A stretch of DNA of 64,000 bases from Lingula anatina (GCA_051362555.1 CM120640.1:47284788-47348787), one strand, 5' to 3'. Shown: positions 22,101 through 37,014, counted from the stretch's first letter. A program made the numbers and translations. Notes: generated by a model not told the origin, from the letters alone.

Positions 22101-25100
22101 GTTTGCTTAGCAGGTGGAACGATTTATTATTCATATTACTGTTATGTATGTCACTACTGCTGTAGCAGATTTTATATGAAATTTGTACATGGTAAGCTTA
22201 AATGCTGAAAATGCCTCTCATAGTTAAGCTGATAATTATGACCACCAGACAATACCTGAACCACTTCAATGTTTCATTGCAATGGGCAGAAATGACATTA
22301 AGGTTCTATAATGAAAATGTTGTCAGCGTAAACAGTTGAGTGAAAATCTCCCATAAATACAGGGTATGTTAGTATAATTATTATTTTGCTTTAGAATGCT
22401 GTTTACATGTTATTAAAGGCAAAGACCTGCAGCCCTCAATATCAGGTCCAATGTGATCAGTGTTAACAACTAGTAATGTTTGTTAACTGGTTATTGATGA
22501 TGCATTATGCAAACTTTTAATGGTAGTTTTGGCTGATCAGTCTGGTAACTTACCCAGGTGCAAATGCCATAAAGTTGTAACATGTTGTAACCTATAGGCT
22601 GTTAAGCTTGATTTCTTTCTAATTACTTGTCACTGAAATAGTGCTGTGACCCAACATTATCCTGTGAAGCACAATATTTGTTTCTAAATTTTAAAATTCC
22701 TTTAAAAAAGATAGCTATTTTATATATATACCTAATCAAATGTTTCCTGATACCAACTTTAAGTTAGAGTGACATAAGGAAAGTTCACTTTTGGTTTGGA
22801 AGATGTACACTTAAAGGTGTGCCATGCGGTAGTTAATGACTGCCTGTATTAGGCAGTAGGAATGACAACAGACCTTTAACAGATGGTGCACATAGTTTAT
22901 GGTCTTCTCTCTTCTCGCCAAATGACATTATGTGATTTTATTTTGACAGTGACAAATCTAACTAGATGCAGTTGCTCAGTTTTGCTCAGTATGTTTTAGG
23001 TTCTGGGGAAATATAGTTCCATGACTGGGGCTTATTAATGTATGAGGGAGCTTGTGTGTTGTGCTTGCCCTGGCTTGGTTACAGGTCAATTGTTGCAGTA
23101 CCAGTTTTGGATTTGACAAATTTTATTGAACTAAATAGTACTGTGATTATTTGATTGAATGAGTACTATTTTTGTACATGAATACATCCAAACCTTGTGT
23201 AAGTTTATATCTCATTTCAAATTTTTTTATTTCTAGGTAACTGGAGTGGTAGCAGTAACAGTGCCCGCCATTCCCTGGACTCAGACTATGCTAGGCCCTT
23301 CCACCACAGTACTGAGAGAGATTCCGCTGTGTCACTGACTGTGGACCATCTTCCCACAGCACAAGAAACTGACGGGTGAGTGGTGAGAGCAGAAAAAAAA
23401 CCATTGTTACATGTATTTGATTATATAAAGTCTGCCTGAAAGACGTAACCACATTAACATAAGCTAATGGTAAACTGAATGGGAAGAAAATATCAGATAA
23501 GAAGGATATTATTTGTTTTTAATTTTATTTATTCATGACCATTAATTAATTCATTTATTTATGAATAATTTCAAGAAGTCTTTAAGCTACTTAAGATGTC
23601 GCATTTAGTATTTAAAAACTATGGACTGAATGGTTTAATGATGTTTTGCTTTCTTTTACAGAGAGGAAAAAGCAGCAGAGGAAGAAGAAAAAGAGGAAAA
23701 GCGAAAACAAGAAGAAGAGAACTCAAATCAGTGTACAACAGACAATACACCTGAAGTACTTGTTACTCCAGCAGAGGAAATACCTAAACCAAGCACTGAT
23801 GAAAACAATGAGAATGAGGAAAATATTGTTAAACCAGAGGACGAAAACGATGGTTCAGACTTCACCTATATGGACACAGATGCTTGGCTTGCTAGTCTGG
23901 AGAGAAAGAAATCCAAAATGAAAAGTGAACCAAACTCTCCATTCAAACCAACAGTAGCAGCAGCAGACTCTGCTGAGCTAAAACCAGATGAAAAGGGTTA
24001 TGTACATCCTGACTATCGTCGATTGATGCAGCCAGACTTTCGCCGCCTGTCTCAGGCCAGCACTGGGTCTTCACTGAGCTCTGACCCCAGGAGGTTATCC
24101 TACACTGATTCCTCATCTGTAAGCTCAGAGGGACTCAGTATTTCGCAGCTGACTAGAGAAAATGTTAACATGCACGATGCATTGGACAACGTACTAGAAA
24201 ACCTAGGTACAAACTTCGACGATGAGTTGGGATCAGTGCACTCTATGGATGATGATGGTTTTTACACGTCTTTCCACACAGACTGTGGGCTCACTAGAAG
24301 CCTCAGTTCCTACTTAAACAACTCAAAGTTTGAATCTCTCATAGATGAAGAGGACCTTTCTGAAAAACAGAGGAAAGAATTGAACAGACTGTCTACTTAC
24401 AGCAACTGGAGTATCACAAGTTTTAGAAGTATTGACAGTGTGATTTATGTACCTCCTCCTGCTGAGAAACAAATCGAATCAGCAGATAAGAAAGGTAGCA
24501 TTAGCACAAAAGAAGCCATAGAAAAAGTGGCCATGTGGCAAAAGGCACATGCTTCTCCAGTTCCAACCCCTCCTGTTGAAGATGATGGTGGTGATCTAAA
24601 TAGAAAAGAACCTGTACAACAGCAACCTAAGCAGCAAAAGAAAACGCCACCACCTCCGCCAACAAGAACCACAACTTTACAGACTCAGAAACCAGATAAA
24701 ATGGATCCTCCTTATCTACCCAAGTCACACATTCCACACAGTGCCTCAGAACCTGTCATGCTCAACCCTGACCTCCATCCAAATGCATTACCAGTCCAGC
24801 GCCAAGTTTCCTTGGATAACACAGACTCTGAAAAGAGGCGAGCCAGCCTTCAGAGCACTACCAGCAATGCCAGTGGCGCCACCACAACAAGTCGTGTGGA
24901 GGCAAAGCTGAGAGAGGTCAAGGATAAAATTGCTGATCTTGTCAGTGGTAATAAGAAGGAAACTTCTGCCAAGATGATCAACTCTATGAGATTGACAGCA
25001 GACAGTGAGACTGACTCCAGTGAGGGTGACCCTGCAGATGTCCAGGACTTCGACAAATCCATGAAGCTAGGAGAGGTGGACACTTATGTCAAGTTTGATG

Positions 25101-28100
25101 TCACAGAACAAGACTGGAGTGAGGTGTCCAGCATGTCCTCTTTCTCATTCAATGAAGACATTGATAATGATTCTACCTACAACAGACTTGTGAACAAGAC
25201 CTCATTTAGTTCATCCTTGTACCCATCCTGGTGCTCTGTCACCCCAGTTCCTAGTGACGATGAGTCCATGGGACACGGAGACAGTCCTGACATAAGCATG
25301 GCACACACACAGCCAGATTTTCGACCTTTCAATTCAGTTTCTGTTAATGCTAATGGAGGTGTTTCTGCTAGTGCTGGTATTAAGGAGAAATACAGTGTAG
25401 TTACTGAGCCAGAGAGCAGCGTCCATGTACTTCAGCGTGTCCCAGCAACACCAGACACAAGCTGTGACAGCCTGGATGTCACTGTGCTCCCAAACACCAC
25501 AAGTGGGACTACACCTGCCACAACAGCACCACCTGTGGCTAAAACAGCACCGCTCTCTGTCACCACAGCACCATCACCAGTGTGGGAAAGAAGATTTCCA
25601 GAACCAGAGAAACCCAGCATCCAGGGCATACTGAAACAGACAAAGACCACAGCTACAGCACCAACAACCAGCACTAGCAATGCTGAACAGCCTCCAAAGC
25701 CTATGAAAGTCATCAACTTTGCTCCTGGAACCAGCATTTATGAAGCCGAGATTCAAATTACGCCCAACAAAAATAAGGCCCCTCCAAGGCCACCAAAGAC
25801 ATTTTTGAAACAAGGGAGCACCTTTGATGATGATTCAGACAGGACCAAGAAGCCCTTGCCTCCCTTACCTCAAGAGGGAAACAGAAACAGTAATATAAAT
25901 TGTCTTCCATGGCCTTTAGAGCTTCCATATCAAGAGTCACCAGCAGGAAGTGCTACAGTGATTGAGAATCACCATGTTTATAACTCTTTTGAGAAACAGG
26001 TTGTTGTCAGTCCTGATCAGACCCCTACAGGTTCACCAGTTAAGATTCGTACCACAAGTAATGGTTCCTATTCCACAATAGTATCACCAGATAGAACACC
26101 CACAGCTTCACCAGTGCAGCAATATCAGGATTCCTTTGAAAGCCCAGATTCTGTAGTCTCAGCAAGACAAGTGCCTAGTCCATCAGCAAATTATGTGGTG
26201 ATGTCACCAACTGTTGTTTCATCCAATCGAAGCTCAACATATTCATCCACTGGGTCATTGTCAAGGTATTCATATACCAGTAATGCTAGCTCCCACTCCA
26301 GTGGCTTGTTCAGTGGATCCATGAGTCCTTTAAGCACACCCAGTAATAGTAACCCAAGCACCCCATATGGAACTCTAACAAGAGAGGGGCGTCCTGCCAG
26401 TGGACTGAGTTCTTACAGCATGTCCCCAGCTACTACACCCACGGGGAGTGGTCAGGTCACTCCAACTGGTTCTCTTGACCGAAGGATCATTGCGCAAAGG
26501 GGTTCCACTGGCCGGCTGGTCAGCCCAGGGGTGTCAGCTGGAAGACTGGTTTCCCCAGGAGGTTCCTCTGGGTCTCTCACCAGGTCAAATTCTACAGGTT
26601 CACGGACAAGTGCCTATGGGACTGCTTCTACAGGGAGATCACCAGGTGACACACCCACCACTTCTGTCACCCCTGGGGAAGAAGTCCCACCCCCTCTGCC
26701 GCCAAAGTACATGCCTACAATTGTAGTGAAGCCAAGAGTGAGAGGAGATGGAAATGGAGCATCCAGTAGAACAGGATCTAGATCAAGTTGGGAAGGGTAT
26801 GGATATGAGTATGTTGGTACAGGCAGCACCCCTACTAATTCTTTAGACAGAAAACAAGCCAGGGTAAGCCTGATCCAGGCCCCTAGTAACAATGCAGGAC
26901 AGGTGGCTGAAAGTGGCAACATGCAAAGAAACTCCAACTATGCAACTCTGCCCACTTCTTCAACTGCCATCAGGGAGCCTATATATGCCAACTTTACTGG
27001 TGCACAATCAAGCAGTAGAACTTCCCCAAGCACTGCAGCCCCTTCCTCTATTAAACTGATCAGGGAACCAATCTATGCAAACATCAGGCGCGCACAGCAA
27101 CCTGTTGGTGTGCATGCTATTGTAGCTAGTGGGGTTGTTCCTGTTAAGTCCATTAACACAACTGCAGTCAGGCGAAGCAACCCTGATTATGAATATATGA
27201 GTGGCACTGAGAGTTGGCCAAGGATGTCTCCCAAAGTGACAGACAATCCTGGTCAATCACAGAGGATTTCCTCTCATAATGGTCCTCAAAATCAGATAAC
27301 AGCCAGTAAAGACAATCTTGGACAAAACTTTCCACATGCACCTGGTCAAATTTTACCAAATAACACTAGGAATTTACATGTTTCTCCAAAGGAGCCACAA
27401 AACCAGAGAGTATCCAGTGCATCTCAGAACAGAGCTAGGGCCAGTTTCCATGGAGAGTCTTCCACATTCCCACGCGAAGAAAATAAAGCACAGAGACCAG
27501 TTAGTCTTGTTATGCCGGGGCGGTCAAAACCAGCGCCACCTATGAGAAGTGTCTCCAGTCCATCTGGCAGCAATAAACCAGCTTTCCCTGTGAGAACAAC
27601 CCCTAGTCCATCCCAACATTATAGTAGACCCCCTCCACCAATGAGGGCAACCCCTAGCCCATCTGGGTCTTCAAATCAGAGTCAACAAAATACCAGGTCA
27701 TCTTCTGTGCCAAGTACTCCCCAGTATGAACAGCAAGACTCAAAGTCTGTGGAAAGCTTTAAGCAGTTGTTGTCTCAGCAGCTACAGAGATGTAGTCACA
27801 TTTCTGCTGCCCAGGCTCTTCATGTTCATCAAGAAGACATGTCTGATGGAGAATCCAGTGTCAGCAGTCATGTTTCTACTAATTCTTCACAAAGGCACAT
27901 GGTGTCCATCAAGGAGATTAGGCAGGCAGTAGGGAAGCCAGCTCAACTTAATGGCCCAGGACATGTAACTCAAATGTCCCCACAGCAACCATCACAGCAG
28001 AATGCCAATAATATAGGAAGACCTGACTCAGTCAATGGCCCTACCACTATCCACAATTCACAGTATGGTGCATGGCAAAATACCAGTCATGTAGGAAGGC

Positions 28101-28948
28101 CAGCTCAACTAAATGGTCCTACCTCTACTTCTGTGCAGTATCAATCACAGAATGGACCACAGCAAAATGTTATGCTCAATAGATCTGTGAGCCAACAAGA
28201 TAGCAGACTGCAAGGTGCAGCTCCTGCACACCCTAGTCATTATGGAAGTGTGGACAGAAAATCTGCGGGGTTTGTAAAGGATTCATCACAAGTAATTGTA
28301 AGGCCGCAGTCAAATTATTCTTCTGCTACTTTGCCAGCATCCATACCAACACATGCCACACAAGTTTCTGGCAATCAACGTCCTGTACAAAATCATCTGA
28401 CACATGTCTCCAAAGATCATGGTCAAATGCAAATTCATTTCCAAGGTCAAGGCTATGTTCAGAATCAGGTGACACATCCAACCCAAGGTCAAGGTGATGC
28501 TCATAACCATGTGAAGCAAGCACCCCCGAGTCCAAGGAGGAATCAGATAAGTTATGTTCAGCCTACAGAACAAAACTCTCCTCCTACTATAATATCAAAT
28601 CAGCTGCAAAAACAGCAACCCAAAGTGTCACCAAAGGAAAAGCTACACTATCCCGATGTCATCCAGTCACACACGGCCCAGAAAACCAGCAGTGCTGGGG
28701 TACCCTTGAGGGGGGCTGCAAAACTTATGGCCAAACAGAGTGGGCAGTTGGTGCAGATGAGGAGACAAACCTGGGCAAAGAGCAGTGAGAGACTTCCCAT
28801 GGAAACCCGCAGTGAATTCCGCAAATCGTCTGGCTCTCTGAATGAACTGGCTGTATTGTCTCTTATTGATGACATTAACTTGAAAATTGGAACAGATGGG
28901 ATTGAGGTTGCACAAGATGAGAGAGGAGTGATACACACTTGTGTATGA
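1112..28948 (+). CDS. NHS: Nance-Horan syndrome (NHS/NHSL/GUK-holder) family actin-regulatory scaffold with N-terminal WAVE-homology domain; 5 coding exons, about 2337 aa
   Basis: Exons 1112-1382, 19980-20251, 20827-21871, 23237-23375 and 23662-28948 are all GT-AG with matching phases (7014 nt). N-terminus MPFIKRAVDPVYLSR...VSNWTLSQALRQLGSLVKHANDIF is WAVE-homology-like. Family motifs LPTPEE, SSSGNWS (across the exon 3/4 junction) and DGFYTSFHTDCG are present, followed by a long S/P/Q-rich tail. The exact vertebrate paralog cannot be assigned. Confidence 0.85.
6954..7125. repeat. Direct tandem duplication, period 98 bp, about 1.7 copies
   Basis: AAAGTTTGCACTACTTTYATA.CATGTTATGTTTTTGTA starts at 6954 and again at 7052. 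Confidence 0.75.
13052..13765. mobile_element. Helentron-associated non-autonomous element (HINE/pearl-like) with internal tandem core repeats
   Basis: T-run, then the palindrome ATGTACAGACA-CAGA-TGTGTCTGTACAT, then a GTC/GCC microsatellite, then an array of 161-bp repeats. This modular layout is typical of HINE/DINE-1/pearl-type elements. Confidence 0.65.
13137..13760. repeat. Satellite-like tandem array, 161-bp unit, about 4 copies
   Basis: Unit starts CYGATARCAC at 13137, 13298, 13459 and 13620. The first three copies are highly similar and the fourth is degenerate. Confidence 0.9.
14155..15350. repeat. Diverged tandem array, period about 330-340 bp
   Basis: Motif GGCATTTyCAA...GTGACTT.GAA...CATGGGCCTGAAG recurs near 14160, 14498, 14829 and 15152, with partial copies near 15310 and 16050. 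Confidence 0.7.
15638..15875. mobile_element. Short HINE-like (Helentron-derived) element inserted in NHS intron 1
   Basis: Subterminal inverted repeats CTCTGCCAAGG (15650-15660) and CCTTGGCAGAG (15836-15846), a 3' hairpin GCACT-ctcaa-AGTGC (15851-15865), an end in TTCTAGTT and an internal TGTTTGTCTGTC microsatellite remnant. Confidence 0.7.
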
Positions 28949-32111: not shown

Positions 32112-35100
32112 CTAAGTTGCAAACAATGTCCACATTGCAATCACAATGTTAGCTGTCAATAACAGAGTCCCAAACAAAATTATCACAGAGTAGATTAGCC
32201 CACGTATGTCACTATCTGGTATGGTAGACCTCAGTGTGTACTCAATAAATGCCAGTAATATCCACTGTCCATCTAACGCATAACATGGAACCACATTCAA
32301 TATTGCTAGAGCCCCGGATAATGATATTAAATATCTGGGTTATAGTAAAGGCAAAAACTATAAGTTGATAATAAATCATCAATGCATGAGTAAATACAAA
32401 TTTGGGGAATAAATGTAGAGCAATATACTAATGAACAATACAAAAACATTTACTGTGATTGTAAAACAGATTGAAACCATGATGCTTTATGATCTGGTGA
32501 AATATAATATTCGCAAGAGCTTCATAATGATAATATCTGTAGCAAAGGATACTGACAAAAGGTTTCAATCACATATGGCATGTTCAATGGTATGAAGACC
32601 CCCACAGGAACATAGTTGCTGATATGAACTGAAATGAATAAGTTTAAAAACACTGTAATTTTTATAATATGGTAAATAAAGCAAGTATTTACAGAGTATG
32701 CAGATATGCTCCAGGTTTCATCACTTTAGATCACATTTGAGGTGATACAATATGTATTTAAGAAAACTGGACTAAAGCAAACAATAATAAATCCAAACAG
32801 TCCATTCCACAACATTTTTACCTCTTCCACAAGTTACCTTCCAGGATTTTTTCACTTCTGTTCCTACCATTTTAGTTTAAAAGACTTCCAAGTTATAGAA
32901 GTTTACAACTGATTTCTATTTTCATAAATGAAGATGGGAAAAATTACGAATAGGAAAAGACTTGATTTAAAATACTTTGGAAAGGCCCTCTACAAGAATT
33001 CCCAATCCACCAACCTGAATAATGCAAGTCCAGTGGATGACCCAGAAAAAGCAAAGGTGCCTTTCCATATCTGTACACTTTGAGGAATGTGGTGCTGTTA
33101 TCCAGTGAGGGGTAGACACATGCTGTCTCGACTTTGGGGTTTCTGCAGTCACTCTGCAGTCTGCAAGGAGGACGATCAGATGTACTGCGTGCAGGCAGGC
33201 AGGCATGTTTTAACTGAAATATTAAGTACCATGAATTTTTATGCCTTTACCATATCATGATTTAAATATAAAAAAGGCATTCATGCAAAATATTTAGCAT
33301 GTACAGAAGCTGGTTGGTAATACAAAATCAGAAACCCATTTGATTCATAATTCTTTGAGCATAAAAAAGACTTTTTTTAACCAAGGACATTTTAGAACTG
33401 AACAAAATGCACAGGACAAAAGACATCATTGTACAGGATATTACACCTCTCACCTGGATAATGTTAAACAGTATATTATAAAATATTACCTTATTGGGAC
33501 TAGCTTTGGTATGATACAAGAAACAAAGGTGAGTGCTGCTTGTACTGTTACAGCACTCTATATTTCCCATGACAGTCACATAATCTGTAACAGTAAAAAG
33601 AATAGAATATTGGGTACAAATCATACTAATGTAGTATTTTTTTAATGAAATCTTTACTGTGTATTCTTAAATTAATAAGCTCAAAGAGATCTTGCCCCCA
33701 AAAAAGGCAACATGTTTCATACTTTGAACTTGATGTTCATAAATTAACTGGAAATGTTCCAATAATGATGCATAACTTACATTAAAGATCAAAGATTTCT
33801 GAAATAAAATGTGTGGTCCTAATAAACAAATATCAGTCGTGAGCCCATAGATATTTGGTACTCATAAGTACTGTTTAGGAATTAAGATACCAACTTTGGT
33901 TATATGACACATCCTGTACTCCAATCTCTCCTACTGGCATACAGTAGCCACTGGATGGGTCCTTCATACTCTGCCCAATACACTGCATCCAGTCCTCCAC
34001 ATTGGTCACTCTACAGTGATTTATACTGGTTACATGGTCTCCAGTGACCAGTCCCCTTGGACCTGACACTGCTGACCCCTTCAATAAAAATGATTTTAAA
34101 AAATCATTTATGTTATCTAAACCAGGTATACAGTCATCTGAAGTGTTTAGTAATTCATTTATTTATTTAATGATTTAAAGTGCCATATGAAGAGGCGTCA
34201 AATGAAAAGCTTATTGTGGCATAAAAATATTCATTTGATACAGGTTAAACTAATGACAGAGAACATATTTCACAGGTACTTATAAAGACTAAAAACAAAA
34301 CCTAAATTAACACACAGCTAACAGCAATTCATATCTGTCCTTAGTCAAATCCTTACCTGTAATACATATGTTATAGCAACTCCAGTACCAGAGGAGTAAA
34401 ACAACATCAGCATCCAGGGTAAAAGGAACCATACTAGCAGTGCAACAATAACAATAATGAAGTTGTGCCATACTCCGGCACAGTATATTCTGAGCTGTCT
34501 GATTGGTGAGATCACTTGTAAATGTTCTGTATACAGATCTACAAATGCACCTGGGTATACAGCCAGTATGAATATCCCAAATCCATTTACTCTCACTTGC
34601 TCCCTTGAAAAGAACAGCAGCAAGTTAAGAACAGACATAATAAGGCATTAGCTTTCTTTCTTTCTTTATTATTGTTATTTTACTAATTGTTTGTCAGTTG
34701 TTAATTCGATGCTATTTGTTTTAGAACACAATAAGGATGCAGCTTCCAGGTAATGTTTTATACCTTTACATTTTGTTGCTTACATATGTGGTTATATATA
34801 TTAAGTACTACAATAATAAAATGACCATCATGTTAAAAACATGAATTAGGAACAAAGATGTCAACTTACAGAAATTGTTAACATTTATAGTAATTAAAAC
34901 GAAAATGCCACTTAATTCTCTAGAAAGTAGAATTGCTTACATATTTATCTTACAAATAAATGGTTAAACTGAATAATAAATAAACACAGCGGGCACACCA
35001 AGAGACAAATACTCTACCTGACTGCAGCCACTGCATGACCTACTTCATGTAAAATTCCACATACAAGAAGAGTCAGCAGATAGTAGAAGATTTGGTTCAT

Positions 35101-36621
35101 AGGAAGATTCACACCAGGCATCTATTAACACATGATATCAACTAGTTAGGAAGCAAAATTCAAATAAATATAAACAATTTATAATAGAGAAAATGAATAA
35201 GCTCTATAAACCAAGCTTTTCCTTTCTTGATGGTTAGCTTTTGATTTTTTTTTATTTTTTAGATAATGATTCTTTACATCAGGGTTTTGATCTTATATAC
35301 ACTCAATAACTGCTTTCATCAAGAGAGATAAAGCTTTGATAAGTACTACACAAAAACATACATCTGTACAAAAAAGGTTACAAATTCTGTTTTGCACCTT
35401 TCTGCAGCAACTGCATGCCCCAATTCATGGAACAGAGCACACAGAAGTAAAGTGAGTAAGTAATACAGCATTTGACTTAATGGGATATTCATTCCTAACA
35501 TCTGAAAATCAAATGTCATGCACACAAAGTTATTCAAAACCAAATAAATCTGCAACACTGAACGAGTTAATACATTTCCATTATATTTTATCACAAAGGT
35601 TAAATAAAATTAAGCATATGGTTTGTCTTTATTGCACAATTGTACCATTTTCCTATATACATAAATATATTTTAATAATAATAATAACTGGCTTTTCATA
35701 ATCAAGTATGAAACATTACATTCAAAAACATTTCAAATGCTTCATCTTATAAAATACAACTGAAAGCATTATCTTTGTTTTCTTTACTTCAACCTACCAC
35801 AGGAGTTAACACTTGTTGCTCTATGTGTTGTCTTGTTAGGGTATTGTATACCATGAGTGTCAACAGGCATACAGACAGCAACATGGCGACCATTCCAAAG
35901 ACAACTCCTGCAGTAAACCAAGTCCGAAGATATCTTGGTTTCCACTGCCCCATCCTTAGAAACACTCGGTTCAGACATTTTGTATACCATCTTATTTGTC
36001 CAACTGATAATGAGATTCCTGTCCTCTCTAAAAACTCAATGTATGGTCTAGCTGTTGACTTGTTTGACTAGAAAAAATAATACAAATTATCAAAACAAAC
36101 CAAAAAAAGACCACAGTTCACAGTTTAAGCTAATTAACCAATGTATGATGTGGTATAAATCACTTCTAAAGTCTATTTTATCTATTTAAGAAAATACATT
36201 GATGTAATGTTTTTATGAAAATAAAGTATACCTGTTATAGGCCTATAATAAACTGCCTGATATAACTGAGTGATACATGCATTTGGGTATCATTCACAAG
36301 GAACTGGCATAAAATCATTAATAAAAGAATAGGCATGGCTGCATGCAATACAAAGTACTATGTATTTTTTCATAATTCATAACCAGGGAATGTTGCACAA
36401 TCTGGGGAAAAAATGAAGTTTTTACTTTTACATTTTAGACAGTCCCTTTTACTGGTAGGTACTCTAGTTTGTAATCAAGACATGCACTGCACCTCTGCCT
36501 CACACCAAAATATACATTAACAATAATTTAACTATTCATTTGTAGTTACCTTTAAGAATGCATCAAGAAGATAAACAGATGACCAGGTCCCCAGGATCAC
36601 TGCAATCCCAGCAGGTTGCAT
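32112..36621 (-). CDS. MBTPS2: Membrane-bound transcription factor site-2 protease (S2P, peptidase M50), about 489 aa
   Basis: Exons 36621-36550, 36067-35798, [35501-35398 or 35121-35018], 34603-34357, 34078-33895, 33584-33490, 33213-33015, 32628-32553 and 32334-32112 (1470 nt). Motifs HExGH, YPGAFV, CAGVWHN, a Cys-rich lumenal region and [10 protein letters not shown]. Confidence 0.95.
32335..32552 (-). other. U12-type (minor spliceosome) GT-AG intron, last intron of MBTPS2
   Basis: 5' splice site GTATCCTTT, branch-site-like TGCCTTTAC about 10 nt before the AG, and no polypyrimidine tract. Confidence 0.8.
35018..35121 (-). CDS. MBTPS2: MBTPS2 exon 3b (canonical-looking HExxH exon)
   Basis: ttaatag|[35 protein letters not shown]|gtagag, 104 nt, phase 0 to 2. 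Confidence 0.9.
35398..35501 (-). CDS. MBTPS2: MBTPS2 alternative exon 3a (divergent copy of the HExxH exon)
   Basis: tttcag|[35 protein letters not shown]|gtgcaa, 104 nt, phase 0 to 2. Confidence 0.75.
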
Positions 36622-37014
36622 TATTTCTTTGAAATAAAAGTGGTTGTCCCGTTCTCGGGTGAGTCATTGCTTACTTCCAACTTCAAGATATCATGTTTTT
36701 ATTTCTGCAACAAAGGATTGACGTTCAAATACAATCAAATACACATATCACGATTGATCTCTTTCGGTTTTTGCGGCTTCTGAATTTCAAGATAACATTG
36801 TGGTTATATTCATACTTGCCTGACTGCGAAAAGGGTGGTTAAAATCTGACAAAAATCTGTGTAGTCTTAATGTTTTTCTTTCACGAACCACATGTTGAAA
36901 GCGAGCAAATTTAGTAGGTCATTACTAGCAACGGACAAGCGTGAAGTTGAGCTTTTTATTGGACAAGTTAACAGGAAACTCAAAGGACTGTGGGTAACCT
37001 TGCATCAGAACACC
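36622..37014. promoter_or_regulatory. Compact divergent (bidirectional) promoter and 5' UTR region shared by MBTPS2 and EIF2S3
   Basis: The two start codons face away from each other and are 393 bp apart. The interval is richer in CpG than the flanking introns. Confidence 0.65.

Follow-up and report, generated by a model that had tools for sequence, protein, structure and literature searches.

A Tandem Duplicate of the Catalytic Exon in the Site-2 Protease Gene of Lingula anatina, Probably Selected in the Past and Unseen in the Spliced RNA Sampled

Results

We analyzed a window of 64,000 nucleotides of Lingula anatina DNA (GCA_051362555.1 CM120640.1:47284788-47348787), and positions are counted from its first letter. 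The gene MBTPS2, encoding site-2 protease (S2P), lies on the minus strand at 32112-36621 and has nine coding exons, all of them on that strand. The first coding exon (36550-36704, with the ATG at 36621) is preceded by a 5' UTR exon above 36819, and exon 2 (35798-36067, 270 nt, ending in phase 0) matches Lingula anatina site-2 protease at 100% identity. The next exon is present in two versions, 3a (35398-35501) and 3b (35018-35121), separated by an intron of 276 nt (35122-35397). Downstream lie exon 4 (34357-34603, 247 nt, starting in phase 2), exon 5 (33895-34078), exon 6 (33490-33584, 95 nt), exon 7 (33015-33213), exon 8 (32553-32628), whose downstream intron has the U12-type donor GTATCCTT, and the last coding exon (32112-32334), which carries the LDG motif and the stop codon. 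The first coding exon and exons 2 and 4–8 were placed by RNA joints and in-silico splicing, and the last exon by these and tblastn. Splicing in silico with 3b alone gave a protein of 489 amino acids identical to NCBI XP_013407159.1.

The last intron (32335-32552) starts with GTATCCTTTG and has CCTTTAC shortly 5' of its AG; this donor and the CCTTTAC are the signature of a U12-type (minor spliceosome) intron, and the joint is borne out by RNA reads. A U12-type donor motif was also seen at the matching exon end in two S2P loci from metagenome contigs, L009 (3176) and L012 (6409), and probably in L014 (6745) and L017 (4548). We found no literature on a minor or U12 intron in MBTPS2. The 5' UTR intron (36705-36819, minus strand) is of the GC-AG type, with 88 reads in run X1 and 120 in X2. 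Around the short exon 6, at 33330-33720 on the minus strand, read depth exceeded the expectation for the exon alone in X1, X2, and X4, which may reflect partial intron retention; the second NCBI model, P0007, differs from P0001 around this region as well.

Elsewhere in the window, several similar genes form a tandem array at ~43700-64000, on both strands, and contain pieces of aldo-keto reductase (PF00248) and of cupin/JmjC (PF13621). These genes share an N-terminal hydrophobic start and are possibly AKR-JmjC fusion genes. On the plus strand, 23642-28945 is free of stops for 1,768 codons; the encoded sequence is rich in Ser, Pro, and charged residues and has no Pfam match, and the gene holding it converges on the MBTPS2 3' end.

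The MBTPS2 protein matched Pfam M50 (PF02163) with 88.9 bits, above the cut-off. HExxH and LDG are the catalytic hallmarks of S2P (PMC7981912), and the Lingula protein has both the HExxH in a membrane helix and the downstream LDG/NxxPxxxxDG motif that define site-2 proteases of M50. Residues H139, E140, H143, N429, P432, D437, and G438 were invariant in an alignment of 144 sequences. In a structure model with mean pLDDT 96, which we used for secondary structure only, the exon 3 segment (residues 115–149) forms a loop and a helix (122–149) bearing H139, E140, and H143; an earlier model built from 10 sequences (pLDDT 43) was too poor for use. The predicted fold matched RseP structures in a fold search. 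Profile and fold searches matched bacterial and archaeal S2Ps only, and phmmer found no solved structure.

The initial annotation had described two homologous 104-nt exons with AG/GT borders and a spacing of 276 nt, both of which encode the HExGH helix. Both were confirmed at 35398-35501 and 35018-35121 on the minus strand, a strand that the annotation had left unstated, and their translations match those given there. Exon 3a (acceptor tttcag/ATG, donor AAG/gtgcaa) is an open-frame duplicate of the HExGH exon with no spliced reads seen, and 3b (acceptor taatag/ATG, donor CAG/gtagag) is the HExGH exon in use, encoding residues 115–149 and placed by RNA joints and NCBI models. The two are identical at 69 of 104 nucleotides and 21 of 34 amino acids. 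A profile of the exon 3 segment scored 49 bits for 3a and 63 bits for 3b. When the protein was searched against the window by tblastn, 3a was found at E 7e-5, with every other match outside the exons at E ≥ 1.5, and no further duplicated exon of MBTPS2 was detected within the window. These data establish a tandem duplication of the S2P catalytic exon.

The same annotation had argued that only one exon or the other gives a full-length protein, and in-silico splicing bore this out. Use of 3a alone gave 489 amino acids. Joining both exons produced an immediate stop at codon 153, after 152 amino acids (...AAERCLV*), and skipping both broke the frame, with a stop after 218 amino acids. Two copies or none thus truncate S2P, and only single-copy messages are productive. 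It had also seen no obvious similarity between the flanking introns. We agree: their likeness did not go beyond that of unrelated splice-site flanks of MBTPS2 (rank 3 to 14 among 36 pairs). The 60-nt stretches 5' of the two exons seemed alike when compared with base shuffles (p 0.008), a similarity that was gone when other acceptors served as the comparison.

Use of the two exons was examined in RNA. Nine runs were assigned by species label, and seven, from three studies whose sampled tissues are not specified, were examined at ~6% of the reads of X1–X5 and ~25% of those of X7 and X8. The proposal of a working splice switch was not borne out: 169 exon 2–3b and 124 3b–exon 4 junction reads stood against zero spliced 3a reads in the seven runs. 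The exon 2–3b joints numbered 51 in X1, 46 in X2, 57 in X3, 0 in X4, 2 in X5, 3 in X7, and 10 in X8; the 169 reads represent 96 start places, and 154 of them came from the three runs of one study. No 3a–3b or exon 2–3a joint was listed in the seven runs. As the table of joints shows only those with at least three reads and hides any below that number, depth is the better test of 3a use. None of the seven runs had any read depth over the 5' half of 3a, and in six of them the depth was 0 along the entire exon. Loose read ends at the exon 2 border carried the start of 3b. Pooling the runs, the 95% upper bound on 3a use was 1.8% by reads and 3.1% by starts. The initial annotation had named two signs that together would refute its proposal, a complete lack of reads with 3a and its absence or frameshift in related species; as far as the seven sampled runs go the first sign is present, since none contains a spliced 3a read.

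The sole reads touching 3a were approximately one pair in X4 (~35322-35425, sense strand), which crossed the 3a donor unspliced and continued into the intron, and which we read as pre-mRNA. They were at least 99% like the window at the 3' end of 3a, and this end is near-identical in a second animal. Four intronic X5 reads at 34695-34840 carried one indel and 7 base differences relative to the window over ~145 nt, pointing to intron variation of up to ~5% between animals; this variation is similar to the neutral time that fits the decay of 3a. All three NCBI Lingula models use 3b (3/3). A 3a-centred query matched no database protein at E up to 10, in a weak test with one candidate.

We looked at the splice sites and for a device that could enforce exclusivity. 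Pairing with U1 was −5.3 kcal/mol for the 3a donor and −9.5 for the 3b donor; the donor of the constitutive exon 5 of MBTPS2 pairs at −4.2, weaker than that of 3a. Among branch-point-like sites in the intron between the copies the best is CCTAAC, located ~24 nt 5' of the 3b acceptor, at a distance of 252 nt from the 3a donor. A sterically hindering branch point was not found, the nearest branch-like motif being 79 nt from the 3a donor and the best one 252 nt. There was no U12 donor around exon 3 that would point to a U2/U12 clash. Ten region pairs examined for docking-selector pairing gave none better than shuffles, 2 of 20 shuffles reaching the best one. We infer that the simplest working rule would have 3b used by default, with messages that contain both exons or neither removed through frameshift and decay.

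Most amino acid changes lie on the 3a side: among 135 close homologs (139 minus three Lingula rows and one indel row), none was nearer to 3a than to 3b, and two were tied. Residues found in other S2Ps account for 11 of the 13 amino acid differences of 3a. The other two differences are outside the range of the family. At segment position 2, 3a has Leu (P116L), a site at which all 241 unique homolog segments and another 65 of 65 cluster members have Pro; P116 is among 13 invariant columns of the 144-sequence alignment. At position 34, the Glu of 3a (V148E) occurs in 0 of 241 homolog segments, with R, K, D, Q, or N there in nine. Two or more private residues are also present in 11 of the 241 working homolog segments, and the profile score of 3a, 31st from the bottom of the 241, is within the family range. 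In the distant protein set, 140 of 149 sequences were usable, seven lacking the motif and two having too little upstream sequence. No disabling lesion (stop, frameshift, or lost splice dinucleotide) was seen in 3a, only P116L, V148E, and the weak donor.

The 35 differences between 3a and 3b fall 10/4/21 on codon positions 1/2/3, with pS 0.73 and pN 0.22. In a first simulation, 3b evolved under constraint and 3a neutrally from the duplication onward, with 3b as the ancestor and with indels and splice sites ignored. Among the 5,751 runs that had 18–24 third-position differences, none kept both HExxH and a frame free of stops with four or fewer differences at second positions. This rejects a never-functional copy, and an allelic artefact likewise. 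In a second simulation with site preferences, 3a selected and then neutral for 0.03, 0.06, 0.1, or 0.2 matched in 73, 82, 45, and 6 of 1,200 runs, relaxed constraint matched in 33, 90, and 19 of 1,200, and neutrality throughout and full family constraint (a harsh model) each matched in 0 of 1,200. As relaxed constraint and recent silencing both match, sequence alone cannot separate a rare isoform from recent silencing. Gene conversion between 3a and 3b was set aside by reasoning, since the first two codon positions would not be spared by it. Past protein-level selection on 3a is supported by these codon patterns, which indicate that an alternative S2P form was once made and selected in the Lingula lineage.

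A scan of metagenome contigs gave 19 S2P loci. Nine of these have this 104-nt exon with unchanged borders, once each within the DNA covered; seven are intronless around the HExGH segment, and three (L008, L010, and L019) lack the whole exon. A duplicate HExGH exon was not seen in any of the nine loci with the exon, of which four have both flanking introns complete (L009, L012, L013, and L014, the last two perhaps from one species). The S2Ps encoded by L001–L007 share ~40–49% identity with that of Lingula, and the stretch matched is free of introns. Six of the nine (L013–L018) encode segments like those of coral proteins, so the borders of the 104-nt exon probably predate bilaterians. From these comparisons the exon looks old and the duplicate local.

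Among 335 homolog proteins (254 close pairs), we found no isoform pair swapping the HExGH segment, and 0 of 288 proteins had two copies of the segment. Four proteins share Ala22/Phe24/Leu27-like states with 3a. In a tree built without the segment (33 rows) they grouped with annelids (support 95/95), and their 3a likeness thus looks convergent and not that of a relative keeping 3a. Two segment versions in one cephalopod cluster, considered as isoforms, differed along the whole protein and represent species.

Discussion

Of the initial interpretation, the tandem duplication, the one-copy logic of the reading frame, and past selection on both copies are supported, and the working splice switch is not. 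The likelihoods that we attach to the explanations below are judgements and not computed posteriors. We lean toward 3a being a former mutually exclusive exon (MXE) that was long translated and is now likely silent. A local DNA duplication would have copied the exon together with its splice sites. Messages with two copies or none would have been truncated and expected targets of nonsense-mediated decay, with single-copy messages productive. Inclusion of 3a would have been frequent enough for its protein sequence to be retained as introns and synonymous positions diverged to the full. Its use would have faded later, probably via its weak donor, and P116L and V148E would likely be early marks of decay, corresponding in simulation to ~0.03–0.1 neutral substitutions per site. 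As 3a has no stop, frameshift, or lost AG/GT, its death, if it is dead, would be recent. This also weighs against silence: with length, frame, HExGH, and AG/GT all kept, the neutral phase is a narrow window to catch. The RNA sampling is thin, too. A rare mutually exclusive exon still in use, in an unsampled tissue, stage, or stress, would likewise suit the open frame of 3a, its exact length, the HExGH, the AG/GT borders, and a product of full length; we hold it to be possible if doubtful. Such a form would be a 489-aa S2P with intact zinc ligands, a changed loop (P116L/V118M/L120I), a changed helix end (V148E), and looser selection, and its exclusivity would rest on weak splice sites and on decay of double-inclusion messages. 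The strong codon-position bias (10/4/21) argues for it, as do the occurrence of 11 of the 13 differences in other S2Ps, charged or polar residues at position 34 in 9 of 241 segments, the near-identical 3' end of 3a in a second animal (X4 reads), and a simulation in which relaxed constraint matched as well as silencing (90 versus 82 of 1,200). It is opposed by the zero spliced 3a reads in seven runs from three studies, the absence of an NCBI model with 3a, the loss of an invariant proline, the absence of a segment-swapping isoform pair among the 335 homolog proteins, and the failure to find an enforcing device. That 3a still replaces 3b in some tissue, stage, or stress, giving a second Lingula S2P with its zinc ligands kept, we consider unlikely.

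Nonsense-mediated decay targets are under-represented in steady-state RNA, and decay would keep double-inclusion messages scarce there. This, the retained 3a splice sites, and a double-inclusion stop after 152 amino acids, far 5' of later junctions, would accord with 3a acting as a poison exon, whose joint inclusion with 3b stops at codon 153, destroys the message, and lowers the level of S2P. Such a role leaves the protein-level conservation of 3a unexplained, and neither 3a–3b nor exon 2–3a reads were seen; we judge it improbable. Still harder to credit is an origin of 3a in misassembly or in an allele, or as a duplicate without any functional past. Such a view could draw on a 9-kb contig that carries another, partial MBTPS2 model, and on the heterozygosity of Lingula anatina, 1.6% (PMC4595640). 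Yet a pS of 0.73 places synonymous sites near saturation, far past alleles, and RNA of another sample crosses the 3a donor into the intron, while neutral decay of a never-functional copy matched in 0 of 5,751 and 0 of 1,200 simulations.

If 3a is silent, as we lean toward, it would offer a clean snapshot of an alternative catalytic exon just after loss of use, which would help in studying how exons arise and are lost and would not be new biology. If 3a is still used, S2P, treated as a single catalytic form, would gain a second active-site helix chosen by splicing. For an M50 intramembrane protease this would be the first report of a catalytic helix swapped by splicing. The variant would then provide a direct test of the role of the invariant pre-helix proline and a natural variant for the effect of the IPG/MPG loop on the choice among SREBP, ATF6, and CREB3-type substrates.

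Tandem homologous exons are well known, and as far as we found, a duplicate of the catalytic exon is new for the S2P family. Among the papers listed in searches that miss most subscription papers and preprint supplements, judged by title or the opening of the abstract, we found no published mutually exclusive or duplicated exon of S2P/MBTPS2. The portion available of an S2P review (PMC7981912) has no mention of an isoform swapping the HExxH segment, and MBTPS2 does not occur in 10 supplementary files of PMC5740500.

Human MXEs derived from tandem duplication are catalogued in PMC5740500, where validation needs junction reads for each exon. Like them, 3a and 3b are neighboring, homologous, equal in length and phase, and located in a folded membrane domain. 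Their 104-nt length is also not divisible by three, as is the case for 60% of human MXE clusters (PMC5740500). The pair shows the structural features of MXEs (adjacency, equal length, phase, and compatible splice sites), and their joining is not productive, with a stop after 152 amino acids. Junction reads differ between the two exons, with 169 and 124 for 3b and 0 for 3a in the seven runs. Validation of rare human MXEs was unsaturated even at 15 billion reads (PMC5740500). With zero junction reads here, 3a is not classed as a validated MXE.

A vestigial duplicated exon is a pseudoexon left by tandem exon duplication. Exon 3a resembles such exons in being homologous to a used neighbor, unseen in the mRNA of the seven runs, equipped with a weaker splice site, and changed at constrained residues; it differs from them in having no stop, frameshift, or lost AG/GT. 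With eukaryotic MBTPS2 of the M50 family, the Lingula 3b form shares HExxH, LDG, the Pfam M50 match, and an RseP-like predicted fold. Lingula MBTPS2 has in addition a second genomic copy of the HExxH exon, of which none was seen in the nine other loci with this exon.
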